From: Candidatus Dormiibacterota bacterium
Lineage (GTDB): Bacteria; Chloroflexota; Dormibacteria; Aeolococcales; Aeolococcaceae
Assembly (NCBI GenBank): GCA_963768105.1
Contig: CAVYGR010000008.1
Location: 233,023 to 297,022, forward strand
Direction: 5' to 3'
DNA length: 64,000 nucleotides
Shown: positions 292-24,442 of the stretch, piece by piece
How positions within the stretch are numbered: position 1 is the first letter of the stretch
Layout of the letters: every line of letters begins with the position of its first letter
Notes under the pieces: generated by a model
Told to the model about the DNA's origin: nothing
Database searches by the model: none
What the model saw: the letters and a program-made list of their open reading frames with translations, nothing else
Program-made: the position numbers and the translations under genes

Positions 292-1458
292 TCAGGAAAA
301 CCGCCGCATGAACCCGCGGATCGATGAAAGCGCGAGCAATGACCGGAACAGCGCTGGATGCGCGGCGAGTGTCAGGTTGTATCTGAACCGGCGGTCGGGA
401 TCCCAGCGCTCCTTGAACTGACCGCCACCCGCAAGGAACTCGACGCGGCGCATGCCGCGGTCGACCATCGAGCTCCGCAGGCTCTCCAGGGTGACGATCA
501 GGCCCACCGAGAACCGGCTCCACGCCGGGTCGTACCCCGAGTAGTAGAGGAACAGCGTCTCGAGATTCTCGAGCCACATCTGTGCCGCGACCGGCGTGCC
601 GTCGATCCACAGGACGCCGATCCTGAGCAGGCCCCGAGCGGCCAGTGCGGGGCACACGCTTCGAAAGAAAGCACGTCGCTGCAGTTGGGCAAAGTAATCC
701 TGATGACGCACCCGCATCGGGGCAAGGGCACGCGCTCGGTGCAGATCGAAGAGCATCGGCAGATACTCGATGACCTCGTTTGGGCTCCCGGCCGACGTGA
801 ACGCGACGGTGTGACCGGCTCGGCGCAGCAATTTCGGATAGTACTTGACGTTGTCACGCAGGCTTTTGTTGAGACCTCGGGTGAACTCGTCCCAGGTGAC
901 GCCGAGTCCACGGTAGAGGTACTCCGTCTTTGTCCCCGCGGCAACGGTGTGCCTGCGGATCCACGGTGAGAGCGCGTCGGTGTCGCGCAGGCCGGGCAGC
1001 GCGGCGAAGCTGAAGCGTGTTTCGGCGAGCCACTCGCACAGCGCCGCCACCAGCGCGTCGCGCCGATGCTCCGGGAAGAGGAACTCGAGTTGCTCGGTCA
1101 CGCTCCAACCCCTGCCCGGCTCCCATCCCAGCGGGAGGAGCAGCGTCGCCCCGAGCCACCGGGGGCCGACACCGCGAGCGTAGAACGGTGCGAGTCCGAC
1201 CAACCGGCCGCCCGCACGAAAAGTCACGATCCGGAGCAGGCACTGCAATCGCCCGCGGCGCCCAGGGCGCAGATGCCTCCACCACGCCTGCGCCCACTCC
1301 CATGAGTTGAACGGCGAGGGTGGGTCCATCTCGTCCACGAGCGCATTCCAGCCGGACCGCAGCGCCGTGAAACCGGCCTCGTCGTCCACCACGTCGACGA
1401 CGACCCGTGGAGCCGGCGCCTCGCTGCCGGCGGCGATCTCAACTGCGTGCGGCAACAT
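292..1458 (-). CDS. CelD/BioF2-like FemAB-fold GNAT acyltransferase
   Basis: From ORF 292..1545. I chose the internal start MLPHAVEIAAG (1458) because the upstream GT stops at 1439. The motif SPFNSWEWAQAWWRHL and the length of about 390 aa match CelD-like proteins of EPS loci. A paralog lies at 5038..6177. Confidence 0.7.
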   Translation of the reverse strand: MLPHAVEIAAGSEAPAPRVVVDVVDDEAGFTALRSGWNALVDEMDPPSPFNSWEWAQAWWRHLRPGRRGRLQCLLRIVTFRAGGRLVGLAPFYARGVGPRWLGATLLLPLGWEPGRGWSVTEQLEFLFPEHRRDALVAALCEWLAETRFSFAALPGLRDTDALSPWIRRHTVAAGTKTEYLYRGLGVTWDEFTRGLNKSLRDNVKYYPKLLRRAGHTVAFTSAGSPNEVIEYLPMLFDLHRARALAPMRVRHQDYFAQLQRRAFFRSVCPALAARGLLRIGVLWIDGTPVAAQMWLENLETLFLYYSGYDPAWSRFSVGLIVTLESLRSSMVDRGMRRVEFLAGGGQFKERWDPDRRFRYNLTLAAHPALFRSLLALSSIRGFMRRFS

Positions 1459-2650
1459 GTGCGTGCTCGAGGCGATGGCTGGGCGTTCCTTCCAGCATGT
1501 CGAAGTACTCCATCTCCAGCAGGTCGGCCGTCGCTGCGACTGCATGGTGGGCGGTCACGTACCGCAACCCGGCCTCCCCCATCCGTCGTGCGACCGTCGG
1601 ATTGCTGAGGAGAAAGTTGACCCCCCGAGCCAGATCCTCGGCTGTGGTTGCGATGATGGCGTCGCGGCCGTTGTGAAGACGGAGATCGCTGATCGCCGCC
1701 GGTGTGGCCACGACGGGCGTGGCGCAGGCCAGCGCCTCGAGCACCTTGTTCTGGACACCGACCGCATACCGCAGCGGAGCCACCGCGACCGCCGCGTGTC
1801 CGATCGTGGCCGCGAGGTCGGGGACATAGTCACGTACTCGGATGTCGTCGCGGGCGAGCATCCGCAGCGATCGCGGCGGTCGGCTCCCCGCGATCAGGAG
1901 CGCAGCATCCGGATGCTCGGCGCGGACCAACGGCCAGATGCGCTCGCCGAGCCACTGCGCCGCACTGCTGTTGGCGTGGAAGCTCATCTTGCCGGTCATG
2001 ACCACAAGCCTCGATCGCCGATCTCCGCCAGGGGTGAAGCGCTCGTGGTCCACAGGGTTGGTCACCACCGCGATGCGAGCGTTCGGGGCAATCTCGCGAA
2101 GCGCGGCCGCGTCGCGTTGCGAGGTGACGATCACCCGGTCCACCGACGTCAAGGCCACGGCCTCGTAGCGTCTGAGCCTGCCGGCTTCGGCTCGATAGAG
2201 CCACCGGGATGGCGGTTGGTGGTCGCGAGCGGCGAGCCGGAACAGCTCGGACACGCAATCGACGGCGTCGAAGAGGACCGGCACGTCGCGTTGGGCGGGA
2301 AGGTATGGCAGCGCGCGGAGGTGTTCCACATGCACAAGGTCGTACCGCCCTCCGCGCATGGCATCAGTGACCGCCCTGCGCATCGCGCGTGACGCGGCGG
2401 CCATCGTCTGGAGCGGGTACGAAGGCTCGACCACGTGGCGCAGGGCAAGCAGCTTGTCCACTCGGGTGGAGGGCAGCGCTCGCTGCACCCTGCTGATCCG
2501 CGATGCTGGGGCAACCGTCGGCCGGTGCAGCGTCAGGACGTGCACGTCGTGGCTCTGGGCGATCGCACCTATGAGCAGGCGAGCCCGCACAGCAAGGTCC
2601 GACGGTTCGTACGGTGCGACGTACAGGATCCGCAAGCGCCTGGCGATCAC
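1439..2650 (-). CDS. GT-B glycosyltransferase (GT4-like)
   Basis: N-terminus RLRILYVAPYEP. C-terminal domain has GKMSFHANS and QNKVLEALACATPVVAT. GTG at 2650 overlaps the upstream TGA (GTGA at 2647-2650). Confidence 0.8.
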   Translation of the reverse strand: MIARRLRILYVAPYEPSDLAVRARLLIGAIAQSHDVHVLTLHRPTVAPASRISRVQRALPSTRVDKLLALRHVVEPSYPLQTMAAASRAMRRAVTDAMRGGRYDLVHVEHLRALPYLPAQRDVPVLFDAVDCVSELFRLAARDHQPPSRWLYRAEAGRLRRYEAVALTSVDRVIVTSQRDAAALREIAPNARIAVVTNPVDHERFTPGGDRRSRLVVMTGKMSFHANSSAAQWLGERIWPLVRAEHPDAALLIAGSRPPRSLRMLARDDIRVRDYVPDLAATIGHAAVAVAPLRYAVGVQNKVLEALACATPVVATPAAISDLRLHNGRDAIIATTAEDLARGVNFLLSNPTVARRMGEAGLRYVTAHHAVAATADLLEMEYFDMLEGTPSHRLEHAHVAARS

Positions 2651-3783
2651 GCGCTCCCGTTCGACCGCACCCGTGCGGTGCTGGTTTTGATCAGGTCGCG
2701 ATAGAGGGACTCGGTTCGGAGCGCGATCTGTTCCCAGGATGCGCCCGCGTCGTCCAGTGCAGGATCGCTGGGGTATCGGCACGCCATCGCCAGGGCCAGT
2801 GCCGAGGGATCATCAGGGGGGACCAAGGCTCCGACGCCATATCGCGTGAACGCCTCGCCCAATCCACCGACGTCGGTGGTCACCACGGGCTTGCGAAACG
2901 CGGCAGCCAACTCGATCATGCCGCTGTCGCTGGTGCCTCTGTACGGCAGCGCGACCACATCGGCCGCCGCGAAGTACCGACTGATCTCCGCGCGTGGAAT
3001 GAAGCGGAGGTCCCACCGCACGGGCAAATGCTCGCGCTCAGACGCGCGACGCATCGCCGTGACGTCGTACAGAGGCCGTCCTGCGATGACGCCGATGACC
3101 CCGGGAGCGTTGCGTTGGACAAGGCGCATCGCCTCGAGAAACAGCTCGACGCCCTTGTACCGGCGCAGGAAGCCAAACAGCAGGACCACATGGGCGTCGT
3201 TCGGCAGATTGAGGGCAGTCCGCGCAAGGTCGGCCGAAGGAACCGTCGACGCCAACGGCGTGTACCTGCCGTGCGGAATGATCGTCACCGACGTGCCAGG
3301 AAGCAGGTCCCGGAGCCGTTGTCGCGACGCCTGTGAATGGCATACCAGTGTGTCGAACCCCCGGTAATACCGGCTGTACGAGCCGAGCCACGGCCGCCAT
3401 TCGTGGCCCTGAACATCGTGGACCGTGCACACGCGGGCCGAGCTCGAGATGCCCCGGTAGAATTGCCGCTCCACGATCGGCATGACGGTGCCCTGCGCAT
3501 GGACGATGTCGGGCCCGAATGCCTGGAGCGCCTTGCCGGCCGCGCCCAGCGACCGGGCGAGCCTGATGGCCTTGCGCGGCTTGGACTCCGAGGTCCGGTA
3601 CCGGAACACCGGCATCACGTCAAAGCTGGGGGTGGACTCGAGTGGCTCGAACAACGAGGAGGTGATGACGGCAACGTGGTGACCACGAGCGGCCAGTGCC
3701 TGCGCGAGGCAGTCGGTGTAATCGGCGGTGCCGCCGACGCCGTAGAACTCGACGAGGCCGATACGCAACGGACCTGTGGTCAT
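2647..3783 (-). CDS. GT-B glycosyltransferase (GT4)
   Basis: N-terminus MTTGPLRIGLVEFYGVGGTADY. GT4-type donor-binding region LPYRGTSDSGMIELAAAFRKPVVTTDVGG. ATGA overlap with the upstream gene at 3780-3783. Confidence 0.8.
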   Translation of the reverse strand: MTTGPLRIGLVEFYGVGGTADYTDCLAQALAARGHHVAVITSSLFEPLESTPSFDVMPVFRYRTSESKPRKAIRLARSLGAAGKALQAFGPDIVHAQGTVMPIVERQFYRGISSSARVCTVHDVQGHEWRPWLGSYSRYYRGFDTLVCHSQASRQRLRDLLPGTSVTIIPHGRYTPLASTVPSADLARTALNLPNDAHVVLLFGFLRRYKGVELFLEAMRLVQRNAPGVIGVIAGRPLYDVTAMRRASEREHLPVRWDLRFIPRAEISRYFAAADVVALPYRGTSDSGMIELAAAFRKPVVTTDVGGLGEAFTRYGVGALVPPDDPSALALAMACRYPSDPALDDAGASWEQIALRTESLYRDLIKTSTARVRSNGSA

Positions 3784-5078
3784 CGGACTGGAACCGCCGC
3801 CTCCACCTCACCATGGCCAGCCGGCTGTCGCCATTGCGAGTGCCGGCGATTGGCGGAGAGCAATGCCGGGATGAGCGACGCCATTCGGCGTCCCCACGAG
3901 TCCCAGTTGAGACGCTGTTCATAGACGTCGCGGCTGCTCCGCACCAGGGCTTCATATCGCGATCGGTCGCGGACCAGGCCGGCGATCACGGCGGCATAGG
4001 CGCGCCCATCAGCCGAGAGCGGCAGGAGCACCCCGTTCTCGCCGTCGGTGACCGCCCCCGCAACACCGCCCGTATCGGTGGTGACCGACGGCCTTCCGTG
4101 TGCGCTGGCCTCGCAGAAGACCATTCCGAAGCATTCGGCTCTGGTGGGCAGCAGGAGAAAGTCCGACTCGAGATACAGCCGTGAGAGCCGCTCGCGTTCG
4201 CTGCGAATCTCTTTGTCGAGGGTGCCCAGGACGCGGACGTTGGCGCGATCCACGTTCTTCGGCGGCGCACAGCCCACGACGGTCAGCTCTGCAGCGATAC
4301 CCTCGGAGCGAAGTGTCTGCAGCGCCTGGTAGGCAATGTCACCGCCTTTCCGGTCCCAATCGACTCCGACAAACAGCAGCCGGCAACCACCGTCCGGTCG
4401 GGGAGCTGTCGCCACCGCCCGGGAGGGGATCTCGTCGAAGTTGGCGCCGTAGGGGATGACGTGCACCTTCTCGTCCCTGACCAGGTAGTCCGCACGGGCG
4501 GAGCGCGCCGCCCATTCCGACGGGTACACGAGGAGGCTGGCGCGACGCAGCACTCGCGCCTCGAGCCTCTGGGCGACACGCGCGTTCCGCGCCGGCAGAC
4601 CGGAATAGAACGGGTAGTAGTCGGCGACGAGCGCGAAGGTCGCGTCCGACGTGTAGACGATCGGGATATCGGTGTGAAGCAGTGCAACGTGCGGCGCCGC
4701 CGACGCCGCGAGGATCACGTCGATGCCGTTCAGTCGTCGGGTGAGGACTCGTGACCAGTCTCGCGCCTGCAGGATGGTGTTGCTGAAGTCGTACGGTCGC
4801 CGCAGCACCTCACGCGCGACCCGGTTGGCTGCCTTGCCGACCACTCTCACCGGCGAATGCAACGGATCGAGGTGCACGACGTTGCCGCAGTGCTGCCGCA
4901 AGGCCTTCGCCATGTAATGCCCGGTCGCGGCCCAGTGCGGTCCAGGCCGCCGCGAATCGACCGACGTCAGCAACCCGATGGTGGGCCGGACCACTGGGCT
5001 CGCAACCGCTGCACCGGACTGGCCCGTCATGTCGGCGTTATCCGAGGTGTGTCCCATAGGCGCCGATCGGGTTGGCAC
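3780..5078 (-). CDS. GT-B glycosyltransferase (GT4)
   Basis: LLLPTRAECFGMVFCEASAHGRPSVTTDTGG is the GT4 signature. The start is uncertain (5078, 5057 or 5030). Confidence 0.8.
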   Translation of the reverse strand: MPTRSAPMGHTSDNADMTGQSGAAVASPVVRPTIGLLTSVDSRRPGPHWAATGHYMAKALRQHCGNVVHLDPLHSPVRVVGKAANRVAREVLRRPYDFSNTILQARDWSRVLTRRLNGIDVILAASAAPHVALLHTDIPIVYTSDATFALVADYYPFYSGLPARNARVAQRLEARVLRRASLLVYPSEWAARSARADYLVRDEKVHVIPYGANFDEIPSRAVATAPRPDGGCRLLFVGVDWDRKGGDIAYQALQTLRSEGIAAELTVVGCAPPKNVDRANVRVLGTLDKEIRSERERLSRLYLESDFLLLPTRAECFGMVFCEASAHGRPSVTTDTGGVAGAVTDGENGVLLPLSADGRAYAAVIAGLVRDRSRYEALVRSSRDVYEQRLNWDSWGRRMASLIPALLSANRRHSQWRQPAGHGEVEAAVPVR

Positions 5079-6177
5079 TCGTTCCGCGGAGGCGAAGACC
5101 GCGCCGGATGCGCGGCACCCTGAGGATCAACCTCGCCAGTGCCGGCCTTCGGGCAAGTGTGACGTTGACCCGCAGCCGCCTCGAGGTCTCCCAGCGTTCC
5201 TTGGCGTGTCCGCCTCCGCGAAGAAACTCGACGGAGGTGAGGCCGCGACTGATGCCGTCCTTCAACGCCTCGATGGTCGCGACCAATTGCACGGAGTACC
5301 GCGACCACGCCGGGTCGTAACCGCTGTAGTAGATGAACATCGTGCTGCCGGTCTCGAGCCACACCTGGGCCGCAACAACGCGGTCATCGACCTCGAGGAG
5401 GCCGACCTTGAGCTTGCCGGCAGCGGCGAGCATCGGGCCAACGTCCGTCAGGAATGCGCGGCGATCGCGGAAGCGAAACCTGTCCTCGTGTGCCACAGCC
5501 GCCCCGGAGATGGCGCGCGCTCGGTGCAACTCGAAGAAGACTGGGATCGCAGCGGAGACCTCCGCCGGAGTCCCGCACACTCGCAGGGTGGTGTTGTGGC
5601 CGCTACGCTCCAGCAGCTTCGGATAGTACTTGACGTTGTCGCGCATGCTCTTGCCAAGGTTTGCCACGACCTCCGCCCAGGTTGCGGGAAGGCTCCGGTA
5701 GTAGGACCACATCGGCCGTCCGAGCAGGACCAGCTTCTCAGCGAGCCATCCCTCGAGCGGAGGCGGCATCTGATTGCCGGGAAGCAGCGCCAGTGACCAG
5801 CGGCGTTCCTGGAGCCACGCGCAGAGGGCGGTCATGAGCCGCGGGCGATCCTGCGCAGGGAACAGCAGCTCGTTCTGCTCGGTGATGCCCTGCTTACGCC
5901 GATGGTCCTCCCATCCGAGCGGCGCCAGAATTGACGGTCCACGGCGCGTGCCGTATCGACGTTGGTGCAGTGGAGCGATACCGATGACGCCGCGCGCATC
6001 GCGTACGACCAAAAGCCGCAGCCGGTGTGTTGCCCCGAAATGCCTCCACCAGGTCCGGCACCACTCCCAGGACTGAAACGGGGACGGCACCTCGAGGCGG
6101 TCGACCAGCTGGTTCCACTCGTCCCGGAGGAGGTCGAAGCCATCCTCGGTCGTGATTTCGCTGACCGAGATCCCCAC
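5038..6177 (-). CDS. CelD/BioF2-like FemAB-fold GNAT acyltransferase (paralog of 292..1458)
   Basis: Motif SPFQSWEWCRTWWRHFG. It is collinear with the first copy along its whole length. GTG at 6177 lies 1 nt after the galU stop (6179-6181). Confidence 0.7.
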   Translation of the reverse strand: MGISVSEITTEDGFDLLRDEWNQLVDRLEVPSPFQSWEWCRTWWRHFGATHRLRLLVVRDARGVIGIAPLHQRRYGTRRGPSILAPLGWEDHRRKQGITEQNELLFPAQDRPRLMTALCAWLQERRWSLALLPGNQMPPPLEGWLAEKLVLLGRPMWSYYRSLPATWAEVVANLGKSMRDNVKYYPKLLERSGHNTTLRVCGTPAEVSAAIPVFFELHRARAISGAAVAHEDRFRFRDRRAFLTDVGPMLAAAGKLKVGLLEVDDRVVAAQVWLETGSTMFIYYSGYDPAWSRYSVQLVATIEALKDGISRGLTSVEFLRGGGHAKERWETSRRLRVNVTLARRPALARLILRVPRIRRGLRLRGTSANPIGAYGTHLG

Positions 6178-6178
6178 C

Positions 6179-8127: not shown

Positions 8128-9176
8128 CGCATCTCCTCGAGTGCTACGGGTGTCCCGACAAGATCCTGGGCAATGCGTGCCAGGTGGAGGGCAAAGGTCG
8201 GTGCGGCAAACTCGTCACGCACCGCCTGCGCGGCGTTGCGGCCGAGGCGCTCACGCTCATGCGGGTTGCGCCAGAGTCGAAGCATGGCCTCACGAAGAGC
8301 GACGGCATCGCCAGGCGGTACGAGCAGTGCCGTCTCACTATCGCGCACGTAATCGCGGATGCCGGTGGTGTCGGACACGATGACGGCCTTTCCGCGCGCC
8401 ATGGCTCGGAGGAGGACGGTGAGACCCGAGGAAAAGGCGGCGGCCTTCAGGGGGATGACGTGAAAGGCGGCCCGTGCCACCAGCGCTGCTTCTTCCGAAG
8501 GGCCGAGCAGCGAGGGGATTGCCACCACGTTCGGCAGCTCGCGACCCCGCATCCATGGGTTGCGGTACATGACGACGCGCACGTCGGTGTCGCGCAGCGC
8601 TTCCCACAGCGTTGGAAAGTCGCGATTGGAGTGCCCCAAGGCGAGCACGAAGTCTTCATGGTCACCATCGATACCGTCATCGGCGATTGGGTCGCGTGCA
8701 TCCGCAAACCGAGGGACGAATTGCATGCGCTCCGGCGGCAGATGCAGCTGGCGGCACATGACACCGTGCTCCGCGGTGCTGAACGAGACGACCCGGTCTG
8801 CATCACGTAACAGGGGCCGCATCAGCGGCAGGGCGAGTGCAGCCCAGCCCTTCACTGTGGGGTTGAGGCTGACCACCCGTGCCCGGCGCTGGTTGGTCAA
8901 ACGCCGGAGCAGGAGGGTCGCCAGCGTGTTGCGCAACTCCCAGGTGAAGAGGATGTCGAGGCTGTCCAGCTGGGGACGGCGTCGAGCAAGGTGCAGGAAC
9001 TCCCCGACGTACGGCGGCAGCCATCGATGCCGGAACCAGATCGAATCCGGCGGCGGTAGCGCCGCAAGCAATTCGGTTTCGTAGTCGGCCTCCGGCAGGT
9101 ATAGGCCCAGCCACCTTCCCGGCGGATCGCTCGGCTCGAAATTGATGACGAAGCCGAGACGGAGTGGTGGCTTCAT
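8112..9176 (-). CDS. GT-B glycosyltransferase (GT4-like, divergent)
   Basis: C-terminal GT-B domain VIPLKAAAFSSGLTVLLRAMARGKAVIVSDTTGIRDYV. The start MKPPLRLGFV at 9176 forms an ATGA overlap with the upstream stop. Confidence 0.65.
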   Translation of the reverse strand: MKPPLRLGFVINFEPSDPPGRWLGLYLPEADYETELLAALPPPDSIWFRHRWLPPYVGEFLHLARRRPQLDSLDILFTWELRNTLATLLLRRLTNQRRARVVSLNPTVKGWAALALPLMRPLLRDADRVVSFSTAEHGVMCRQLHLPPERMQFVPRFADARDPIADDGIDGDHEDFVLALGHSNRDFPTLWEALRDTDVRVVMYRNPWMRGRELPNVVAIPSLLGPSEEAALVARAAFHVIPLKAAAFSSGLTVLLRAMARGKAVIVSDTTGIRDYVRDSETALLVPPGDAVALREAMLRLWRNPHERERLGRNAAQAVRDEFAAPTFALHLARIAQDLVGTPVALEEMRCESL

Positions 9177-13324: not shown

Positions 13325-13872
13325 GGCAACGCCGTCATCCCGATCTCCGACAGCAGCGGCCAGGCGGCGTCCTTGGGTGAGATCTCCGTGACCGGCAGTG
13401 GCCACTCGATGCCCAGCACGGGGTCGTCGTAACGCAGCCCGCGCTCGCGTTCCGGAGCATAGAACTCGCTCACCTGATAGATCACCTCGGCGTCGTCGGC
13501 GAGCGCCTGGTAGCCGTTGGCAAACATCTCCGGCACGTAGAGCGCGCGACGATCCTGCGAGCGCAGCTCGATCGACACGTGTCGCAGGTAGGTGGGCGAT
13601 TCGGGCCGCACGTCCACGATCACGCTCCGAATGGCGCCGTGGATGCAGCGGATGAGTTTCGCCTCGGTCGCCGGAGGCAGCTGATAGTGCAGGCCGCGCA
13701 CCGTGCCACGACGGCGGTTGTAGGACACGTTGCACTGCACGAACTCCGCCCGCAGGCCATGGTCGGCAAACTCCCGGGCGCAGAAACTGCGTGCGAACAT
13801 GCCCCGGTTGTCGGAGCGGGGCTCCAACTCGACGACCGTCGGACCGCTCAGCTCGGTCGGGATGAAGCGCAC
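13321..13872 (-). CDS. rmlC: dTDP-4-dehydrorhamnose 3,5-epimerase-like cupin (RmlC family)
   Basis: MRFIPTELSGPTVVELEPRSDNRGMFARSFCAREF and RGTVRGLHYQ are RmlC hallmarks. Length is 183 aa. Confidence 0.85.
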   Translation of the reverse strand: MRFIPTELSGPTVVELEPRSDNRGMFARSFCAREFADHGLRAEFVQCNVSYNRRRGTVRGLHYQLPPATEAKLIRCIHGAIRSVIVDVRPESPTYLRHVSIELRSQDRRALYVPEMFANGYQALADDAEVIYQVSEFYAPERERGLRYDDPVLGIEWPLPVTEISPKDAAWPLLSEIGMTALP

Positions 13873-16416: not shown

Positions 16417-17254
16417 TTGCCTCGACTGGCGCTGGGGTCGCGATCGGGACCGTTTTGATGACAGCACGAGGTCCGCGCAGGTACTCGATGGCAACCGCGA
16501 GTGCCAAGCCGAGGATGAGTCCCAGCACACCGGCGAACCCAACTTTGATCAACCATGAGAACGTCTGCGAGTGCGCAGCCGCGCGATCGACAACGGTTGC
16601 GCTGTAGGTCAACGCAATCTGCACCTGGTTGACCCGTGCTTGGGCTGCCGCCGTCTGCAGATCCAGGTATGCGTTCTGCGCCGCCTGCTGATCAAGTTGC
16701 AGACTCCGATACTCGGCGGTGAGTTCGATTGACGCCGTGCCGTTGAGGACCTGCGGGTTGACGTGCTCGAAGGTCAGCAGGGTTTGCGTCGCATCGAGGT
16801 ACTGTTGGCGGTACTGCTGCTGATCAGCCTCGAGGTTGGTCACCACCGAGTTGGCCGCACCACCCGCGAGCACCTGGTAGTAGGCCGCGCCTTCGGATGC
16901 GACCGCGTCGGCCAGCGCGACCGCGTTCTGGGCAGACGGGTCGCTCACGGTCACCAGGTACAGCGTGCTTCGTGTCGACACAACCGCCAGGTCAGCTGCC
17001 AGCTGGGTGGTGCTCTCCCCCACGTGCGTGTCGGCAAGCGCGCGTGTGGCGACGGTACTCGAGTTCGCGACATCGCTGAAGCTCAGGGCCTGACCGTTGG
17101 CATTGGCGGGCACCTGAGCCACGACCGACGCGGTGGCCTGATAGTGCGGGGATCGAAGGGCGATCACTCCGGTCGCGCCCACCGCCACCAGTGCGAGCAA
17201 TATCGGTATCCACCAGAGTCGTCGGAGGGCTAGTAGGACAGGTCCTTGCTGCAT
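16337..17254 (-). CDS. Polysaccharide co-polymerase (Wzz-like chain-length determinant, no kinase domain)
   Basis: The start MQQGPVLLALRRLWWIPILLALVAVGATGVIAL at 17254 includes the N-terminal TM segment. A long coiled periplasmic-type region follows, then a C-terminal TM segment LIKVGFAGVLGLILGLALAVAIEYL. Confidence 0.65.
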   Translation of the reverse strand: MQQGPVLLALRRLWWIPILLALVAVGATGVIALRSPHYQATASVVAQVPANANGQALSFSDVANSSTVATRALADTHVGESTTQLAADLAVVSTRSTLYLVTVSDPSAQNAVALADAVASEGAAYYQVLAGGAANSVVTNLEADQQQYRQQYLDATQTLLTFEHVNPQVLNGTASIELTAEYRSLQLDQQAAQNAYLDLQTAAAQARVNQVQIALTYSATVVDRAAAHSQTFSWLIKVGFAGVLGLILGLALAVAIEYLRGPRAVIKTVPIATPAPVEANGASGGRQPTDPRSSTVRFQRSGRKR

Positions 17255-17256
17255 GT

Positions 17257-18341
17257 TCACCTCACTCTCGATGACAAAGCTGATTGCGGAGACGTGCTGC
17301 TCGACCCCGAGGCACCAACGCCCAACCACCGCGGCGCACCAAGGTCCGGACGCCGGCAGAGGGGCTCCGGGATCCACTCCGGACACGTCGTGGATGCCAG
17401 CATCTCGGCCGCCTGCCGGCGGAGTCCGGTGCTGGGCAGCAGGTGCCACAGGGCAGCCCACAGAACCTCGCAGGGCACATGGCCCATTCGGGTGACCCGC
17501 TGTCCGCGTCGCGGCCGGTAAGCGGGCAGCATGCCGACCGGAACGAAGACGCGAGGGACAGCCTGCAAGGTCCAGGCATCAGACCCGCTTCCCGCAACCG
17601 CAACCAGTGGCAATCCGGGCGGGAGAAAGCTGCTGAGCACGGCTGCGAGATGCGCCGCTCGAGTGGTGTCGCTTGCGAAGAAGTCCGTATGGAGGGGTGT
17701 GACGCGTAGCCCGAGATCGGTGAGGCGCAATCGTTCGAGGAGACCACGGCCTTCGGCACCGCCGATCGGAACGGTACGTCCGTCGACGATCCTGGAGGCT
17801 CGAACAGAGTGCGCGCGGTCTGGCGCGAGCACGACCTCGGGGTCTGACCGAAACGCTTGTCGCAGGCGCGAAAGCTGCTCCCCGAGCGCCGTTCGCTCCA
17901 CGATCTGACGGACATCGATGATGCCGGCACGCCGTATTCAGCGATTCCCGCCAGCAGTCCGAACCGGGCCACAAGCGTCTGGACGGTATGAGCGGACGCG
18001 CCGGTCGTCACCACCACGCCGATGCCGGCCAGTTGGAGGACACGCAATGCGATCGCGGCAGCCAGGCTCACGGCGGCGATGTCCGAGCCCTCATCGAAGA
18101 GGATCCTGTCGCCCAGCACCACCACGCGCTCAGGGCGCTCGACCGACGCGGCGCCGACGGCGGTGGCCAGCCATGCGTGCATCGTCTCCACTGCAAGCTC
18201 TCGCGCATGCACCATTTGCGTGTAGGCCGCCTGGCGCGCGATGCCCGGCGGAGCCCACCGCAACGTCTGTCGCGCGACCCTGAGATCATCGCGCGCAGCC
18301 GTCCAGCGTACTAGGGGATCAGCCGGCCACGGACCGTACAT
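17257..18341 (-). pseudogene. HAD-IIB (Cof-type) phosphatase-like protein, frame break near 17928; catalytic motifs look degenerate
   Basis: The N-terminal frame (ORF 17262..18341) reads VVVLGDRILFDEGSDIAAV...GIGVVVTTGASAHTVQTLVARFGLLAGIAEYG. The continuation GIIDVRQIVERTALGEQLSRL... is in the frame of ORF 17257..17901. Motif I is FDEGSD rather than DxDGT, and motif IV is GSGSD rather than GDxxND. Confidence 0.4.
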
Positions 18342-19273
18342 CGCCGTTGTTGTGCTCGTGGGCGTGTGCCATCGCTTCCACCGTCATCGTCAGTGCATCG
18401 ATCAGCGGCGTACGAGCGTGCCAACCGAGGACGCGGTGTGCCTCGGAGCAACTCATGACGAAGGTCCGCACATCACCTGGACGCCGCCCGCGACGCAGGG
18501 CGACAGGATGGACTCCCATCAAAGCGCAGACTTCGATCGTACAGGTCGTTGACGCTGATGCCGACCTCACTGGCGATATTGAAAGTCTGGTTGTGGCCGC
18601 GCTCCAGCGCGGCAACGACTGCGTCTGCAACGTCGCCCGCGTACACATAGTCCTTGGTCTGCTCGCCATCCCATTCGATCGTGGGTGCCCGGCCGGACAG
18701 CAGGGCGTCCACGAAAGCGGTCACCGCGTGCCCGCTCCCAAGCGAGTCGCGCGGGCCGAAGACGTTTCCCAGTCGCAAGACGGTGTACCGGAGCTGCCGT
18801 TCCTTCGCGATGATCCGCACGTACTGCTCACCGGCCGCCTTGGACACGCCGTATGGGCTGATGGGACCGATGGGATCGGTCTCCACCACCGGCTGTCGCG
18901 CCGGGTCGCCGTAGACAGTTGATGACGACGCGAAGATGATCTTGCGGGAGTGAGCCTGGGCCATGGCCTCGAGCACGGCCAGTGTTCCGATGATGTTCAC
19001 GCGCCCGTCGTGACCAGGATCGGCAACCGAGCGTTCCACGCTCGTCTGCGCGGCGAGATGGACCACGACCTCGGGCAGGAAACGCATCACGACTTCCGCC
19101 ATCTGGGACGCGTCGCGGATGTCGGCCAGCACGAACCCGCAGCCTTCAGGCACGTTTTCCCGGCAGCCCGAGGCGAGGTTGTCGAGCACCGCCACCTCGT
19201 TCCCAGCGCTCAGCAACGCCGCCGCCACGTGCGAGCCGATGAACCCCGCACCTCCCGTGACCAGCACGCGCAT
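18319..19273 (-). pseudogene. galE: UDP-glucose 4-epimerase, frame break near 18540 as sequenced
   Basis: MRVLVTGGAGFIGSHVAAALL and YGVSKAAGEQY (YxxxK) lie in the frame of ORF 18473..19276. The C-terminus TIEVCALMGVHPVALRRGRRPGDVRTFVMSCSEAHRVLGWHARTPL lies in the frame of ORF 18319..18669. Confidence 0.8.
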
Positions 19274-19860
19274 CACATCGCCCCCCTGCCGGAGAGCACG
19301 GCTGGAATCGTCCTTGCCAGGATGCGGACATCGAGCAGGATCGACATGCGCTGGACGTAGAGGCCGTCGAGACGGATGCGCTCAGCCCGGCTCAGCCGCT
19401 GCCGGCCACTCACCTGCCAGAGACCCGTGATCCCGGGCCGCACAGCGAGCAGGAGACTTGCCGTCGCCCCCCACGCCGGGAGCTCCTCCGGGCTGATCAT
19501 CCTCGGGCCGACCAGGCTCATCTGACCTCTGACCACGTTGACGAGCTGTGGAAGCTCGTCGACGCTGCTGCGGCGCAGCCAGCGCCCGACCCGTGTCACG
19601 CGGGGATCGCCTGCAATCTTCATGGATGCGGAGCACACCTGACGAAGCTCGGGGTCGGCTGCGACGAGCGTGTCCGCCTCTCGCACCATGGTCCTGATCT
19701 TGTATGCGTCAAACGGGCGTCCGTACCGGCCCATGACCCGACGGCGATGGATCACCGGAGACCCGGAGTCGACCCACACCGCTGCCAGCGATGCGGCGAC
19801 CACAGGCGATGTCAGGACCAGCAGCAACAGCGCAGCCGCCACATCGAAACACCGCTTCAT
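19273..19860 (-). CDS. Small monotopic phosphoglycosyl transferase (PglC/WbaP C-terminal type)
   Basis: The start is MKRCFDVAAALLLLVLTSPV. Canonical motifs are FDAYKIRTM, GDPRVTRVGRWLRRSSVDELPQLVNVVRGQMSLVGPR and RPGITGLWQVSGR. Confidence 0.85.
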   Translation of the reverse strand: MKRCFDVAAALLLLVLTSPVVAASLAAVWVDSGSPVIHRRRVMGRYGRPFDAYKIRTMVREADTLVAADPELRQVCSASMKIAGDPRVTRVGRWLRRSSVDELPQLVNVVRGQMSLVGPRMISPEELPAWGATASLLLAVRPGITGLWQVSGRQRLSRAERIRLDGLYVQRMSILLDVRILARTIPAVLSGRGAM

Positions 19861-19895: not shown

Positions 19896-21203
19896 TCACT
19901 GCGATCGCTCGACCGACAGCGCGGGGTTCGCGCCCGTTCCCGACCGACGCAGGTGGCTCCGCACTCGGCGAAAGAGGACCTGAAGATCCAGCATCACGCT
20001 GTACGCGCGGATGTAGTACAGCTCGCGAACCGACTGCTCGGCGGGGTCCTCGACCTCTCGCCACGGCCCGGTCAGACCGGGTCGCAGCCGGGCCGTGAGC
20101 CCCGGCCGTGAGCCCGCGTCGGCAGCGTCGACTGGGCGTGGCCCGACGATGGTCAGCTGACCGCTCAAGACGTTGAGCAAGCCGGGCAGCTTGCGGAGAA
20201 TCGCCGAGTCAAACGGCGCCGTTGAGCCAAACGTCAGGAGGTCAAAGGGGACGCCGGTCGCACCCACCACCCGGCGCCGCTCCACGATGCGGCGGCGCCC
20301 ATGCAGTCGTTGCCAGACAAGCAGCAGGCCGACCGCCGGGCTGCATGCGATCAGCAGCGCGGTGGCGATCGCGTAGTCGAGTGCGGCCTTCATCACTCGC
20401 TGCGGTCCGGTGAGCCGAGCCTGGTTGACCGTGAGCAGTGGGATGTCGTGCGATGCGGAGAACTTCACCCGCGTCGTGAGCAAGTCGTAATACCCGGCGG
20501 AGACATGGATCCGCGGCCCATCGGGCGCCATGGCGGCTGCGGTGATGACCTGGTTCAGCGTCTCCCAGGGAAGCGCTTGGGGCACGATGATCGCCTCATG
20601 TATCCCCGAACGAATCGCCACCTGGTTGAGGTTGGCCGGCCTGTCCACGACGCTGACTCCGGGGAGGAGCGGCGAGCCGATGCGGTGATAGTCATCCAGG
20701 AAGCCGACCACCCTCATTCCAGTGGGGTCGGCGTTGAGCTGTGCTGCGAGAGCGACGGAGTTGGCGTCGGCCCCGACCAGCAGGGTCGGACGAACGAAGC
20801 GGCCCCGGCGCTGCAGTGCGCGCGCACCGCGACGCAGCACATAACGAGACGTCAGCATCAAGGCCGCGGCCGCAACCCACGACACCCCGATCCACTCACG
20901 CGAGACCGGATGCCGGACGACAAAGCTCAGCAGACTCACCGCGGCGAGGCCGTAGAGACACGCGCGGACGACCGCCGAGTACTCGCGGGTGCCCGCGAGC
21001 AGGGTATCCGGATCGTAGGCTCGGAGTACTGTGAGGACGGCAATACCTGTGACCAGCATCAACCCGAGCAAGAACAGTGGACTGTCAGGATTGCGATGGC
21101 TGAGTGCCTGGTGAACGGAGATGCCAAGCCATCCTGCGATCAGGAGACATGCGGCATCGAGCAACACCAGCAGGGCGGTGTACCTGCGCCAGTCGGTCGT
21201 CAT
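19896..21203 (-). CDS. Large polytopic phosphoglycosyl-transferase-like protein with degenerate catalytic motifs
   Basis: N-terminal TM bundle, then a central NAD/CoA-binding-like region (LLVGADANSVALAAQL, VVGFLDD), then a C-terminal PGT-like domain. In that domain KFRTM is replaced by LLTFGS and SLDELPQL by AILRKLPGL. ATGA overlap with the hddA-like stop. Confidence 0.7.
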   Translation of the reverse strand: MTTDWRRYTALLVLLDAACLLIAGWLGISVHQALSHRNPDSPLFLLGLMLVTGIAVLTVLRAYDPDTLLAGTREYSAVVRACLYGLAAVSLLSFVVRHPVSREWIGVSWVAAAALMLTSRYVLRRGARALQRRGRFVRPTLLVGADANSVALAAQLNADPTGMRVVGFLDDYHRIGSPLLPGVSVVDRPANLNQVAIRSGIHEAIIVPQALPWETLNQVITAAAMAPDGPRIHVSAGYYDLLTTRVKFSASHDIPLLTVNQARLTGPQRVMKAALDYAIATALLIACSPAVGLLLVWQRLHGRRRIVERRRVVGATGVPFDLLTFGSTAPFDSAILRKLPGLLNVLSGQLTIVGPRPVDAADAGSRPGLTARLRPGLTGPWREVEDPAEQSVRELYYIRAYSVMLDLQVLFRRVRSHLRRSGTGANPALSVERSQ

Positions 21204-22237
21204 GAGCGGAGCGCGCTCATCGCCTTCGCGTACATGGTGTTGACGAGCACCATCGCGCCGCCCGTCTCGAAGCGAAAGTCCATGGCGTTGAGCCCGAGTG
21301 TCTGCAGGGTTGCGGTCACGCGTTCCTGGCGCTCCGGCTCGCAGTACAGGACGAGGAATCCGCCGCCACCGGCGCCGGTGATCTTCCCGCCCTCGGCCCC
21401 GGCCCCCCGGGCCGCCTCATACCATTGATCAATCCACGGATCGGAGATGCCCGGAGCCAGCTGCCGCTTCGCACTCCACGACCGGTCCAGGCACTCACCG
21501 ACGGACTCGATGTTGCCGCGGGCGAGTTCTTCGCGGAGCTCGATCGCAGCCTGCTTGATGGTGTGCAGGCTCCGGATCACGCTGCCGCGGTTCCGCTCAC
21601 TGCCGCGCTTCTGCTCGGAGAGGATCTGAGCGGAGTTTCGCGATCTGCCGGTGAAGAACAGCATCAAACGGTCCTCCAGCCGGCTGGTCACATCGTGGGG
21701 CAGATCGATCGGGCGCACGCTGACTCCCGACGAGGTGAACTCCATGTAATTCAAGCCGCCCACCGCGGCGGCGTACTGGTCCTGCCGTCCGATCGGCATG
21801 CCAAGCTTGTCGATCTCGACCTGGCAGGCCAGGTCGGCGACGTCTTCCTGCTTCATGGGGATGCGACAGAAAGCGGCCATCGCTTTGATCAGTGCCACCG
21901 CGACGGTGCTGGACGAGCCGAGCCCGGTCCCCGGGGGAACCTGCGACGCAAGAAAGACGGACAGCCCGGTATGGATGCCGAAGTGGTCGATGATCACCTT
22001 CGGCAGACGCAGGTCGCCGTCCCAGAGCGGCGGCTCGTCGAATCCGTACCTGTAGAACATCTGATAGTCGGACGACGACACCTGGATGTGTGGGGCGTCG
22101 TTCGGCGATGCGATGACGTAGAAGTACTTGTCGATCGTGGTGCTGATCACCGCCCCCCCGTATTTGCCGTAATAGGCTTCGAGGTCCGTCCCGCCTCCGG
22201 CGAGGCTGAGCCGGAGCGGGGCCCGCACGATCAACAC
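21200..22237 (-). CDS. hddA: GHMP-family sugar kinase, D-glycero-D-manno-heptose 7-phosphate kinase (HddA) type
   Basis: MLIVRAPLRLSLAGGGTDLEAYYGKYGGAVISTTIDKYFYV is the COG2605/HddA N-terminal signature. PPGTGLGSSSTVAVA is GHMP motif 2. Confidence 0.8.
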   Translation of the reverse strand: MLIVRAPLRLSLAGGGTDLEAYYGKYGGAVISTTIDKYFYVIASPNDAPHIQVSSSDYQMFYRYGFDEPPLWDGDLRLPKVIIDHFGIHTGLSVFLASQVPPGTGLGSSSTVAVALIKAMAAFCRIPMKQEDVADLACQVEIDKLGMPIGRQDQYAAAVGGLNYMEFTSSGVSVRPIDLPHDVTSRLEDRLMLFFTGRSRNSAQILSEQKRGSERNRGSVIRSLHTIKQAAIELREELARGNIESVGECLDRSWSAKRQLAPGISDPWIDQWYEAARGAGAEGGKITGAGGGGFLVLYCEPERQERVTATLQTLGLNAMDFRFETGGAMVLVNTMYAKAMSALRS

Positions 22238-22265
22238 GATGGCTCGCTCCGCGTCACCGGCTCAA

Positions 22266-22850
22266 TCAAGCAGCCTCCGGCGCACCGAGTTCGGTGATCG
22301 CATGCTCGAGAACGAGGTGACAGCCCTCCGTGACCCCGTAGTCATTGACGGGAACGTGAATCGCGACGTCGACCATGTCCACCAGGCGGCCGCCGCCGAA
22401 ACCAACCAAGGCGACCGTCACCGCGCCCAGGGCACGAGCGACCTCGATCGCGGCGAGAATATTGGGCGAGTTGCCGCTCGCGCTGATGGCGATCACGACG
22501 TCGCCGGGGTTGAGCAGATTTGTCAACTGCTCGGCGAACACACGCTCATATGAGGTGTCGTTTGCCCAGGCCGTGACAAGGGCAATGTTATCGGTGAGCG
22601 ACGTGACCCGGAGTCGTGCGCGGCCATCGACGATGGTGGCCTTGCCGAGATCGCAGGCGAAGTGGGTGGCGGTCGATGCACTGCCGCCGTTGCCGACCAT
22701 GTACAGGTTGCGCTTCGCGAGCTGCGCATCGACGATGATGTCGACGACGCGCTCGATGATCTCGAGCGGCACCGCGCCCAGCGCGACGTTCACGCTCTCG
22801 AAATGATCGCGGACCACCTCCGTGGTGGTTGGCTTCAGGGTCAGTGCCAT
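22266..22850 (-). CDS. gmhA: Phosphoheptose isomerase (SIS domain)
   Basis: NLYMVGNGGSASTATHFACDLGK and VVIAISASGNSPNIL. Length is 194 aa. Confidence 0.85.
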   Translation of the reverse strand: MALTLKPTTTEVVRDHFESVNVALGAVPLEIIERVVDIIVDAQLAKRNLYMVGNGGSASTATHFACDLGKATIVDGRARLRVTSLTDNIALVTAWANDTSYERVFAEQLTNLLNPGDVVIAISASGNSPNILAAIEVARALGAVTVALVGFGGGRLVDMVDVAIHVPVNDYGVTEGCHLVLEHAITELGAPEAA

Positions 22851-22965
22851 CCTTGTCTCCTCTCAAAGATGCGTCCAATCGCAATCGCCCGGCTCGCCGG
22901 ACAGGCTCCGCCGGCTCGGACACCTGGGGTGCGCGAGCTGCCCTCCGCGGGGCTGACCGACGAGG

Positions 22966-23466: not shown

Positions 23467-23671
23467 TCCCGCGCATCGTAGGTGGCAGCAGTTACATACC
23501 AGTGAGGACGATCGCCACGGACGCTGACGATTTCGTAACTCTGCGAGACCCTTTTCCATCGTGCGTGCGCCCGATCGCAGCTTGGAGGACCATGCCGGTC
23601 GGGAGGTCGGGGCCCGCGGCGGCGCTCATCCTCAAACGGACCACGGCCACAGGACTGTAACCGTCGAACGA

Positions 23672-24442
23672 TCAGGCGATGGCGGAATGCGTCGTGTCGT
23701 CCTGCTGCGCGGCGCCGAGGTCAATGGCGGTGGTCCGGTTCGACGCGGCCGCGAACACGTAGCCGAAGCCCCGCAGCGATCGAATGTAGAAATCGCCCTG
23801 CAGATGCGGTCGAATCTTCTTACGGAGCCGGAGCACGTAGACGTCGATCGCCTTGGCGGTGGCGACGAAGCTGTCTCCCCACGCCAGCTGAAGCAGCTGG
23901 TCCCGGCTCAGGACGCGATCCGGGTTCTCCATGAACACCCGAAGCAGGGTGAGCTCCCGGGGTGTGAGCGAAACCCGGACCCCCTTGACGACCACGGTCA
24001 TGTGCTGCTGGTCGAGCAGAACGTCCCCGATCGAGAGGCTGGTGTCCTCGGTGCGGGTCGCTCCCCGTGTGAGGCTGGCTCGCCGCAGCAGAGCGCGTAC
24101 GCGAGCCAGGAATTCATGTGGGGAGAATGGTTTCCTGATGTAGTCATCGGCGGCGGTCGTGAGGCCGCGCACGACCTGATCCTCCTCGCCGCGCTCGGAA
24201 ACGATGATGATCGGGACCAGCGGATTCAGCTTCCGGATCTGCTGACACAGACGGACTCCGTCGTGATGCGGCAGCGCGGTTTCGATGGTCACGAGGTCGA
24301 CCGCGTAGGCCTGGATGATCTCGAAGGCAACCTTCCCGTCGAGCGCCGTAAATGTGCGGTGGCCGTCCTGCTTGAGCAGGAAGGTCATCAGCTCCAGTTG
24401 GAGTGGGTCGGGCTCAATGACCAGTACCGTCGCCACACCCAC
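23672..24442 (-). CDS. OmpR/PhoB-family response regulator with non-canonical receiver (Glu at the phospho-acceptor position)
   Basis: Receiver plus winged-helix architecture (DDYIRKPFSPHEFLARVRALLRR; LTPRELTLLRVFMENPDRVLSRDQLL; IDVYVLRLRKKI). Hand alignment to OmpR puts VTIETALP opposite MVLDLMLP and VIEPD opposite VVDDD. Confidence 0.85.
   Translation of the reverse strand: MGVATVLVIEPDPLQLELMTFLLKQDGHRTFTALDGKVAFEIIQAYAVDLVTIETALPHHDGVRLCQQIRKLNPLVPIIIVSERGEEDQVVRGLTTAADDYIRKPFSPHEFLARVRALLRRASLTRGATRTEDTSLSIGDVLLDQQHMTVVVKGVRVSLTPRELTLLRVFMENPDRVLSRDQLLQLAWGDSFVATAKAIDVYVLRLRKKIRPHLQGDFYIRSLRGFGYVFAAASNRTTAIDLGAAQQDDTTHSAIA

Follow-up and report, generated by a model that had tools for sequence, protein, structure and literature searches.

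A 64-kb window (the whole stretch of 64,000 nucleotides analyzed here, from contig CAVYGR010000008.1 of a Candidatus Dormiibacterota assembly) carries over its first 24 kb a tightly packed, minus-strand array of polysaccharide biosynthesis genes. Genes were defined from Pfam and NCBIfam matches, candidate start codons, and alignment to orthologs, among them those on the collinear soil metagenome contig L082. The array comprises 23 genes in an unbroken run, from a response regulator gene to the second of two Acetyltransf_6 genes (stop at 292). An initial annotation of this DNA had placed such a run between 24442 and 292; it was recovered here, with the L082 alignment setting the response regulator start at 24436 and leaving the GTG at 24442 as an alternative. 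We read the region as the main part of an operon specifying a Wzx/Wzy-type heteropolysaccharide, whether surface-bound or extracellular, that is conserved in an uncultured soil lineage, and assign this reading a probability of about 0.7. Its core had already been proposed in the initial annotation and is supported by the family matches as well as by the tight, overlapping gene array.

Gene inventory, layout, and regulation

The features of the locus are given below from the upstream end (aa, amino acids; identities are to L082 unless another contig is named; equivalog cut-offs are those of NCBIfam). The G+C content across the region is 64–72%, and raw lists of open reading frames (ORFs) are crowded as a result.

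24679–25699, minus: GH5 glycoside hydrolase (cellulase family), directly upstream of the response regulator; PF00150, E 1.7e-19
24624–24651, minus: candidate sigma-70-like promoter, TTGACA-16-GATTAT, in the spacer between the GH5 and response regulator genes (a consensus match, which may not reflect the host's rules)
23672–24436, minus: OmpR/PhoB-family response regulator, 254 aa; PF00072 and PF00486; 85% identity
22966–23466, minus: NusG paralog (RfaH/UpxY/LoaP-like), 166 aa; PF02357, 41.5 bits, above cut-off
22266–22850, minus: SIS-domain isomerase, GmhA-like, 194 aa; PF13580; 100–110 bits to GmhA models with cut-offs of 209–320
21200–22237, minus: GHMP sugar kinase, HddA-like, 345 aa; NF049969 (HddA), 225 bits against a cut-off of 600
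19896–21203, minus: large polytopic WbaP-like protein, 435 aa; CoA_binding_3 and a partial Bac_transf match (profile positions 88–177)
19273–19860, minus: small monotopic phosphoglycosyl transferase (PGT), 195 aa (208 aa from an alternative GTG at 19899); full Bac_transf, PF02397, 186 bits
18319–19276, minus: GalE-type UDP-hexose 4-epimerase, frameshifted near 18532
17262–18170, minus: conserved protein with no Pfam or NCBIfam match; orthologs in L081, L082, and L089; length in relatives ~304 aa; frameshifted near 17875
16337–17254, minus: PCP-like (Wzz-like) protein, 305 aa; weak PF02706 match, below cut-off
14878–16323, minus: Wzy_C-domain membrane protein, 481 aa, presumed polymerase; PF04932, 50 bits; about 12 hydrophobic segments
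13848–14885, minus: sulfotransferase of the 3′-phosphoadenosine-5′-phosphosulfate (PAPS) type, 345 aa; PF13469, 37 bits (cut-off 27), and PF00685, above cut-off
13321–13872, minus: RmlC-type cupin, nucleoside diphosphate (NDP)-4-keto-sugar 3,5-epimerase, 183 aa; TIGR01221, 165.8 bits (cut-off 155.75)
12014–13324, minus: DLO1-family (DXR-II-like) NAD(P) oxidoreductase with SAF domain, 436 aa; PF21135, 175 bits
10308–11964, minus: Wzx flippase of the MOP family; PF01943, PF13440, and NF007773; frameshifted near 11565
9173–10411, minus: GT4 glycosyltransferase, 412 aa; PF00534 (119 bits) and PF13439; 84% identity
8112–9176, minus: GT4 glycosyltransferase, 354 aa; PF13692 and PF00534; 79% identity
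7042–8127, minus: divergent extended short-chain dehydrogenase/reductase (SDR), 361 aa; PF01370, 83 bits; 73% identity
6179–7030, minus: GalU-like sugar-1-phosphate nucleotidyltransferase, 283 aa; TIGR01099 (galU), 190 bits against a cut-off of 327
5038–6177, minus: Acetyltransf_6 (CelD/BcsL/FemAB-like) protein 1, 379 aa; PF13480, 92 bits; 82% identity
3780–5057, minus: GT4 glycosyltransferase, about 425 aa; PF13692, PF00534, and PF13439
2647–3783, minus: GT4 glycosyltransferase, 378 aa; PF13439 and PF13692; 94% identity to L087
1439–2650, minus: GT4 glycosyltransferase, 403 aa; PF13692 and PF13439; 92% identity to L087
292–1458, minus: Acetyltransf_6 protein 2, 388 aa; PF13480, 92 bits; homologs 388 aa
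1–243, minus: N-terminus of a secreted PQQ-like beta-propeller protein, running off the window edge

Four-nucleotide overlaps of stop and start codons are present at all five junctions where they had been recorded by hand (ATGA at 21200–21203, 9173–9176, and 3780–3783; GTGA at 13321–13324 and 2647–2650). Another such overlap lies at 19273–19276, and five further junctions overlap by 8–25 nt. Thirteen of the 22 junctions overlap and most of the remainder are less than 50 nt apart; internal spacers above 50 nt are limited to those between the response regulator and NusG paralog genes (205 nt), between the NusG paralog and SIS genes (115 nt), and between galE and the gene that follows it (~150 nt). 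The earlier description of almost no intergenic space thus fits most of the array, but not these three places. Chance cannot account for 23 co-oriented, overlapping genes, although this is still the usual appearance of long polysaccharide operons.

Position 292 had been taken as the end of the unit, yet the operon extends past the first position of the window. In L084, L086, and L087, Acetyltransf_6 gene 2 is followed by a gene encoding 526 aa, whose first 80 residues share 72% identity with the ORF at 1–243, and relatives carry five more genes there on the same strand: the beta-propeller gene, a 352-aa SDR gene, a second sulfotransferase gene, a gene for a GmhB-like HAD-IIIA phosphatase, and a CBM96-phosphoesterase gene. 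The left limit of 292–24442 therefore reflects the window edge and not the operon end; the whole operon is ~30 kb, with its main part in the window. At the other end, the GH5 gene is 81% identical to its syntenic counterpart in L082 and occupies the same place in L081, L082, and L083. Because it lies on the same strand and is syntenic in relatives, it can be counted as a member of the conserved block.

Most of the gene families in the initial inventory were correctly named, although it missed four frameshifts (below), the RmlC–SAF oxidoreductase module as such, and the degenerate state of one of the two PGTs that it listed. The small PGT is intact: the YKIRTM, DPRVT, and VDELPQL motifs and the Asp-Glu dyad, which is the catalytic dyad of monotopic PGTs in the PglC literature, are all retained behind a single N-terminal hydrophobic helix, and on these features it is likely the initiating enzyme. 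In the large WbaP-like protein, the membrane and CoA_binding_3 regions are retained, but the KxRTM motif and the Asp-Glu dyad have been lost through a deletion of ~34 residues. This deletion is common to the window, L081, L082, and L089 (51–83% identity), with Arg-Lys or Lys at the flanks in all four. As judged from these alignments, the large protein is a conserved pseudo-enzyme encoded next to an active one, and is probably a scaffold or regulator. The two ORFs were also considered as a single frameshifted PGT gene; this was rejected, as they are separate conserved genes in relatives.

The five GT-B glycosyltransferases counted earlier are confirmed by Pfam as five GT4 enzymes. The PCP-like protein has hydrophobic helices at residues 6–24 and 238–256 around ~210 residues, a PCP-1 topology. 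The two Acetyltransf_6 proteins are paralogs (47% identity); the acyl or aminoacyl decoration proposed from them agrees with two PF13480 matches, but finds no support beyond domain names. No solved structure matched the 361-aa SDR at E < 1e-8.

An OmpR-type regulator and a NusG paralog stand at the head of every version of the locus examined, bearing out the regulator pair of the initial annotation. The start of the NusG paralog was fixed by alignment to L082, and the gene is kept in L081, L082, and L089. Like RfaH, UpxY, and LoaP, the protein has an NGN domain and is encoded at the start of a long polysaccharide operon, with which it is co-conserved. It differs in falling below the NCBIfam cut-off of every named subfamily (62 bits against 144 for RfaH, 35 against 100 for UpxY, and 32 against 125 for LoaP). 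A search for an ops-like recruitment element identified none; conservation of the leaders does not exceed that of coding DNA, the 115-nt leader before the SIS gene being 85% conserved and coding DNA equally so. By analogy with these proteins, the paralog probably suppresses termination over the ~30 kb.

The candidate promoter upstream of the response regulator is the sole minus-strand promoter-like site in 16–27 kb of the window, and L081 and L082 have both its TTGACA (−35) and the TATCCT downstream of it unchanged. No convincing internal intrinsic terminator was found: a scan of 1–20 kb returned 12 weak matches (7.1±2.4 in shuffled sequence), and one of 16–27 kb returned a single match (4.3 in shuffles). 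The spacer between the response regulator and NusG paralog genes (23467–23671, minus strand) contains conserved GTTACAG and GTTACGA blocks and an inverted TGTAAC, and the leader before the SIS gene (22851–22965, minus strand) contains an invariant GGCGGAGCCTG. These blocks could be candidate sites for regulator binding or for recruitment of the NusG paralog.

Conservation, sulfation, and sugar precursors

Comparison with orthologous loci in related genomes, as the initial annotation had proposed, recovered collinear copies in soil metagenome contigs, with 73–93% protein identity and 78–80% DNA identity over 21 kb. The same gene order is found in L081 (2.17 Mb), L082, and L083, and is extended downstream by L084 and L086. 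Since such copies occur in several soil metagenome assemblies, the locus is lineage-conserved and not a one-off, and the “unusual enzyme inventory” attributed to it was overstated. The accompanying remark that no characterized locus shares this combination still holds for characterized loci, though the locus itself is not unique. Homologs of the Wzy_C protein with 54–97% identity were recovered in at least 12 soil metagenome proteins, all 478–491 aa long. The named relative among them is a Candidatus Dormibacteraeota metagenome-assembled genome (MAG), and searches with the Acetyltransf_6 and sulfotransferase proteins agree; named homologs of the locus proteins have 46–60% identity. A presumed Wzy conserved to this degree is unusual for O-antigen or capsule loci, which vary by serotype, and suggests that the glycan is a core polymer of the envelope or matrix, shared across the lineage, and not the product of a serotype locus.

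Two contigs, L088 (NCBI GCA_019245575.1) and L089, represent more distant Dormibacteraeota versions of the cluster, with a rearranged gene order in L088. The RmlC–DLO1 gene cassette was not found in either within the ~21 kb fetched for each. Its absence there indicates that the cassette is a variable module and that the locus family is modular.

Sulfation had been predicted from the presence of the sulfotransferase, and this prediction gained support from both the protein and its relatives. The 5′-phosphosulfate-binding (GSGRSGTTW) and 3′-phosphate-binding (RHPCAVLTS, fitting RHPxxxxxS) motifs of PAPS-dependent enzymes are both present. Related loci carry one or two extra sulfotransferases (a second and a third), and the more distant versions carry, within the cluster or at its side, genes for ATP-sulfurylase and APS-kinase, fused or separate, adjoining sulfotransferases (L088 8361–10004; L089 1–258 and 19352–19942). 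Given the PAPS-binding motifs, the additional sulfotransferases, and the PAPS-synthesis genes of related clusters, the polysaccharide is probably sulfated. More than 2000 homologs of the window sulfotransferase were found, in Actinomycetota, Eremiobacterota, Lentisphaerota, cyanobacteria, and other groups. Sulfated bacterial polysaccharides have been presented as essentially a cyanobacterial trait (PMC8205485); the thousands of sulfotransferase homologs in soil phyla, together with PAPS synthesis in related clusters, indicate that this view is probably too narrow.

The oxidoreductase that had been listed, with its cupin neighbor, as “orphan” aligns to the Brucella enzyme DRL (3upl) with 221 bits over residues 8–409. 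It shares the PF21135 plus SAF fold family with Brucella abortus DXR-II (DRL, 3upl/3upy) (PMC3847144). Two differences separate them: Brucella Thr229 corresponds to Ile221 in the window protein, and the genomic context is glycan rather than isoprenoid synthesis. Thr229 is the substrate and fosmidomycin anchor of DXR-II, and Ile, Leu, or Val at this position is the DLO1 state; DLO1 is an uncharacterized clade that includes Nostoc sp. PCC 7120 NP_486871.1, and its tested members failed to complement a DXR mutant (PMC3847144). By sequence, the window oxidoreductase is thus a member of the DLO1 family. A role as a DXR-II feeding polyprenol synthesis was considered and rejected, given the Thr229 to Ile replacement and the glycan-synthesis context. 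Literature searches on COG4091 and on Dormibacterota exopolysaccharide found nothing useful.

The adjoining cupin has true RmlC enzymes as its best PDB matches (134 bits, against ~50 bits for enzymes of the Campylobacter jejuni Cj1430 type). Assignment as a Cj1430-type GDP-heptose epimerase was therefore rejected, as the protein is of the dTDP type by sequence, though the functional analogy is kept. No cluster protein reaches the rmlA, rmlB, or rmlD cut-offs that would indicate a dTDP-L-rhamnose set (best rmlD scores of 25–88 bits against 224).

Far from being orphans, the two genes form a conserved module. Among 80 retrieved homolog loci, almost all from heterocystous cyanobacteria and the others from Chloroflexota and Sericytochromatia MAGs, DLO1 homologs have 66–71% identity to the window protein (66–68% in Nostoc/Anabaena), and an RmlC with 61–65% identity lies beside DLO1 in 78. 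The cyanobacterial loci, by clustering and annotation, contain genes for a glucose-1-phosphate cytidylyltransferase, an L-2-hydroxyglutarate-oxidase-like flavoprotein, an SDR, a GT2, RmlC, DLO1, a GT4, Wzc, HepC, and HepA. This order matches the published alr2825–alr2835, which identifies these loci as the heterocyst envelope polysaccharide (HEP) island, in which alr2830 is annotated as rfbC and alr2831 as a probable NAD(P)-dependent oxidoreductase (PMC4390870). In 71 loci, the HEP-island SDR is 45–46% identical to the SDR that lies beyond the window edge in relatives. The module of the window and its relatives is accordingly orthologous to alr2827 (SDR), alr2830, and alr2831 of the Anabaena/Nostoc sp. 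PCC 7120 island alr2825–alr2841 (PMC4390870), but the settings differ. The HEP-island module is paired with the glucose-1-phosphate cytidylyltransferase, L-2-hydroxyglutarate oxidase, HepA ABC exporter, HepC, and Wzc, whereas in the window its neighbors are GalU-like, GmhA/HddA-like, Wzx/Wzy, and sulfotransferase genes. Mutants in some of alr2827, alr2830, and alr2831 lack heterocyst envelope polysaccharide; to our knowledge, the chemistry of the three gene products has never been assigned.

The flavoprotein gene adjoins the SDR gene in 69 of the 80 loci (e.g., L017 1500–2723, NF008726, 618 bits), and the best solved-structure match of both the off-window and the HEP-island SDRs is 6vo6, taken here, without confirmation, to be Cj1427. 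Cj1427 is a ping-pong C4 dehydrogenase that uses 2-oxoglutarate and yields L-2-hydroxyglutarate (PMC10680097), and an L-2-hydroxyglutarate oxidase beside the SDR would fit Cj1427-like chemistry. The C. jejuni Cj1427/Cj1430/Cj1428 pathway follows the same logic of C4 oxidation by an SDR, C3/C5 epimerization by an RmlC-fold enzyme, and C4 reduction, with GmhA and HddA upstream (PMC10680097). It differs in that the window epimerase is dTDP-type-like, the proposed reductase is DLO1 (of homoserine-dehydrogenase-like fold) and not an SDR, and the GDP-specific HddC is lacking. As to the substrate, a Chloroflexota contig with genes for a GHMP kinase, RmlC, and DLO1 side by side hints at a heptose, while the cyanobacterial context hints at CDP-glucose. 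We tentatively propose, as an idea that is more likely wrong than right, that the SDR, RmlC, and DLO1 constitute an undescribed NDP-sugar remodeling pathway, linked with a lineage-conserved, multiply sulfated, possibly heptose-bearing Dormibacterota envelope polysaccharide.

The predicted heptose rests on the SIS and GHMP genes. Among solved structures, the SIS protein is matched best by phosphoheptose isomerases, and the GHMP kinase, the most conserved gene product of the locus (93% identity to L082), by 3k85, WcbL (4usk), and C. jejuni HddA (4n3o), with E values of 1e-53 to 1e-66. In relatives, a 189-aa GmhB-like HAD-IIIA protein is encoded off-window at the operon end (NF006506, 153 bits against a cut-off of 178). 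Heptose in the glycan is plausible on these grounds; the initial prediction stands as to best structure matches and the GmhB-like gene, but model scores fall below their cut-offs and HddC is missing. Among the remaining precursor enzymes, the GalU-like protein has only GalU enzymes as its top PDB matches (up to 150 bits), and the L082 galE ortholog has UDP-glucose 4-epimerases as its best (215 bits). An RmlB-type dehydratase was rejected for the latter gene, since GalE structures match it best.

Gene presence and family membership, which were observed, suggest a course of synthesis in which each functional step is predicted. Transcription would start from the promoter in the spacer between the GH5 and response regulator genes under control of the OmpR-type regulator, and the NusG paralog would carry it through in the manner of RfaH or UpxY. 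GalU-like and GalE-like enzymes would provide UDP-glucose and UDP-galactose; GmhA-like, HddA-like, and off-window GmhB-like enzymes would provide heptose-1-phosphate. An NDP-sugar may be remodeled by C4 oxidation (off-window SDR), C3/C5 epimerization (RmlC-type cupin), and C4 reduction (DLO1), with the oxidation coupled to 2-oxoglutarate/L-2-hydroxyglutarate as in Cj1427. The small monotopic PGT would start the repeat unit on polyprenyl phosphate, with the large WbaP-like protein as putative scaffold or regulator, and five GT4 enzymes would extend it. The window sulfotransferase (and one or two more in relatives) would add sulfate from PAPS, and the two FemAB/CelD-like enzymes may attach an acyl or aminoacyl group. 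Finally, Wzx would flip the unit, the Wzy_C protein would polymerize it, and the PCP-like protein would set chain length.

Frameshifts and other loci in the window

Relative to L082, single-nucleotide indels, seen as frame-switching matches, occur in galE (near 18532), the gene at 17262–18170 (near 17875), wzx (near 11565), and the GH5 gene (near 24796). The GH5 match changes frame at residue 301/302. The galE ORF ends at 267 aa, against 318 aa in the L082 ortholog, which matches the window in two frames; the gene at 17262–18170 likewise aligns to its ortholog in two frames. The wzx gene, whose family assignment is otherwise in line with the initial annotation, is split into an N-terminal ORF (11041–11964) and a C-terminal ORF (10308–11501), while intact orthologs are 533–534 aa. 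The expected ATGA stop/start at 10408–10411 is out of frame, and the wzx ORF thereby enters the next gene by 100 nt. A metagenome scan for near-identical copies at the frameshift sites returned one relative, at 87% identity.

The long-read contig L081 contains breaks of its own: RmlC and DLO1 form a single 622-aa call (12452–14320), and two genes, for a glycosyltransferase (17167–18241) and an SDR (18226–19297), are both called as two pieces. Indel errors in the long-read assembly are the most likely cause. In the window, a pair of RCC1-repeat ORFs (33251–35538, plus strand) overlap by ~280 nt in different frames and are probably a single frameshifted gene.

A second polysaccharide locus occupies 39309–55002. 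Its G+C content is lower (~0.60), the AT skew reaches 0.25 at 48–50 kb, and it may have been acquired horizontally. It includes the following genes.

39309–41267, plus: Wzc-like PCP/P-loop protein
41366 to ~42954, plus: large PGT, broken over three frames
44511–45536, plus: rve integrase
47874–49055, minus: second Wzy_C protein
50290–51486, minus: GT4 glycosyltransferase
51620–52282, minus: WecG/TagA-family glycosyltransferase
53581–55002, minus: DUF4012 protein

Several genes encoding adenylate/guanylate cyclase, STAND (AAA/NB-ARC), and TPR domains lie at 26787–32876 and 35373–38967 (minus strand). Some look like fragments, with TPR only at 26787–27722, and cyclase, zinc ribbon, and AAA domains at 28771–30252. 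The CBM96-phosphoesterase encoded by the last gene of the cluster in relatives has a paralog 63 kb away: a phosphoesterase-family ORF crossing the right window edge (63103–63993, minus strand), 55% identical to the C-terminal half of that protein. The ORF at 58240–59112 (minus strand) has codon-position G+C of 0.36/0.54/0.94, a fragmentary DUF6087 match, and overlapping plus-strand ORFs; its coding status is doubtful.

Alternative readings and significance

Several observations weigh against the operon as proposed. Transcription as a single unit was deduced from gene spacing. The run could instead comprise several transcription units in the same orientation (regulators, precursor genes, and assembly genes), as the three longer spacers with their conserved intergenic blocks, and the modular build-up indicated by L088 and L089, would allow. 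The overlap of 13 junctions, the short gaps at most others, the lack of a convincing internal intrinsic terminator, and a dedicated NusG paralog that implies long-range read-through make this unlikely. On the assembly side, the PCP assignment depends on a weak match (PF02706, E 6e-4), no Poly_export-type match that would indicate OPX/Wza was found among the ORFs scanned in the cluster and the rest of the window, and the Wzy_C domain does not separate polymerases from ligases or O-oligosaccharyltransferases. OPX/Wza is required in diderms, and may be unnecessary if the organism is monoderm. PF04932 spans WaaL and PglL/TfpM enzymes besides Wzy, and the window protein has a weak TfpM match (E 1.6e-5). 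The product could then be a short sulfated oligosaccharide attached to protein (e.g., an S-layer), lipid, or a wall anchor, for which lineage-wide conservation in the way of a core envelope component would also be apt. We consider this quite improbable: a PCP-like two-helix protein is encoded directly upstream of the Wzy_C gene, the PGT, Wzx, Wzy_C, PCP, and five glycosyltransferases make up a canonical polymerizing set, and the cluster has no second Wzy_C gene for separate polymerase and ligase roles. A polymerized repeat unit, exported through Wzx/Wzy, remains our preferred product.

Its composition and the state of this copy are subject to larger doubts. No PAPS-synthesis gene occurs in the 64-kb window. 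The GmhA-, HddA-, and GmhB-like proteins cover three of the four NDP-heptose steps, all below equivalog cut-offs; HddC is not among the model matches of the sole nucleotidyltransferase of the cluster, which is GalU-like and has no HddC-like PDB match; and L089 has the SIS and GHMP genes with no nucleotidyltransferase or HAD gene in view. The SIS and GHMP enzymes may accordingly feed a non-heptose phosphosugar, with RmlC and DLO1 acting on a dTDP- or UDP-hexose supplied by genes elsewhere on the genome. The dTDP-type score of RmlC, and the cyanobacterial module, which is accompanied by a CDP-glucose enzyme but by no SIS or GHMP gene, point the same way. This is a substantial possibility, though one that we would put below even odds, as the best structural matches are heptose enzymes (E 1e-25 to 1e-66), the GmhB-like phosphatase gene lies within the same operon in relatives, and GHMP kinase, RmlC, and DLO1 genes are adjacent on the Chloroflexota contig. 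The four to five frameshifts hit essential genes, and reflect either local assembly indel errors or an inactive copy. If they are real, the copy is decaying and this genome makes no glycan or a truncated one, while intact relatives are functional. Other split genes and an integrase in the window favor decay, as does the absence of any frameshifting indel over 8.3 kb of the locus in comparison with 93–95% identical short-read contigs (L087, 93%, and L090, 95%; stretches of 4.3 kb and 4.0 kb, with the frameshift sites outside both), which means that the sequence is not uniformly noisy and that assembly noise is not established. However, loss of wzx with an intact initiating PGT is normally toxic, and the other 19 genes retain full-length frames and typical third-position G+C bias. 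The differently split and fused genes of L081 bear the signature of consensus indel error, and broken genes are found throughout the window, including RCC1, PGT, and STAND genes; both suggest the same kind of error here. Decay thus deserves to be taken seriously, but appears to us the minority case, and we retain the reading of a heteropolysaccharide operon.

In architecture, the cluster is a standard Wzx/Wzy cluster. Like those for colanic acid, xanthan, and Myxococcus exopolysaccharide (EPS), and like capsule and O-antigen clusters generally, it has a PGT, a MOP-family Wzx, a Wzy_C protein, a PCP-like protein, GT4 enzymes, and co-oriented precursor genes. It differs in the absence of OPX/Wza and of a tyrosine kinase, in the combination of a degenerate large and an active small PGT, and in a presumed Wzy that is conserved across the lineage instead of hypervariable. 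The nearest characterized analogue in content is the sulfated-EPS locus xss (synechan) of Synechocystis sp. PCC 6803 (PMC8205485). Both have Wzx, Wzy, and PCP components (the last two putative in the window), many glycosyltransferases, two sulfotransferases (the second off-window here), and a response regulator, with no OPX in the cluster; the likeness drawn here is one of gene content. The window operon lacks an XssQ-type STAND activator and a histidine kinase, whereas xss lacks heptose-type precursor genes, RmlC/DLO1, FemAB-like genes, and a NusG paralog. PAPS-synthesis genes are embedded in relatives of the window locus, but not in xss.

The leads offered by the locus are the DLO1 module and a non-cyanobacterial sulfated glycan. 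If the glycan is sulfated as predicted, this would be genetically defined synthesis of a sulfated polysaccharide, with PAPS genes in the cluster, well outside the cyanobacteria. If the remodeling pathway is real, it would provide the first function for the DLO1 family, an orphan since 2013, and would explain three genes of the HEP island; a testable function for DLO1 and for alr2827, alr2830, and alr2831 is the most useful by-product of this analysis. Dormibacterota are abundant in soils; we know of no cultured representative and of nothing reported on their envelope. The conserved 30-kb glycan operon offers a concrete handle on it.

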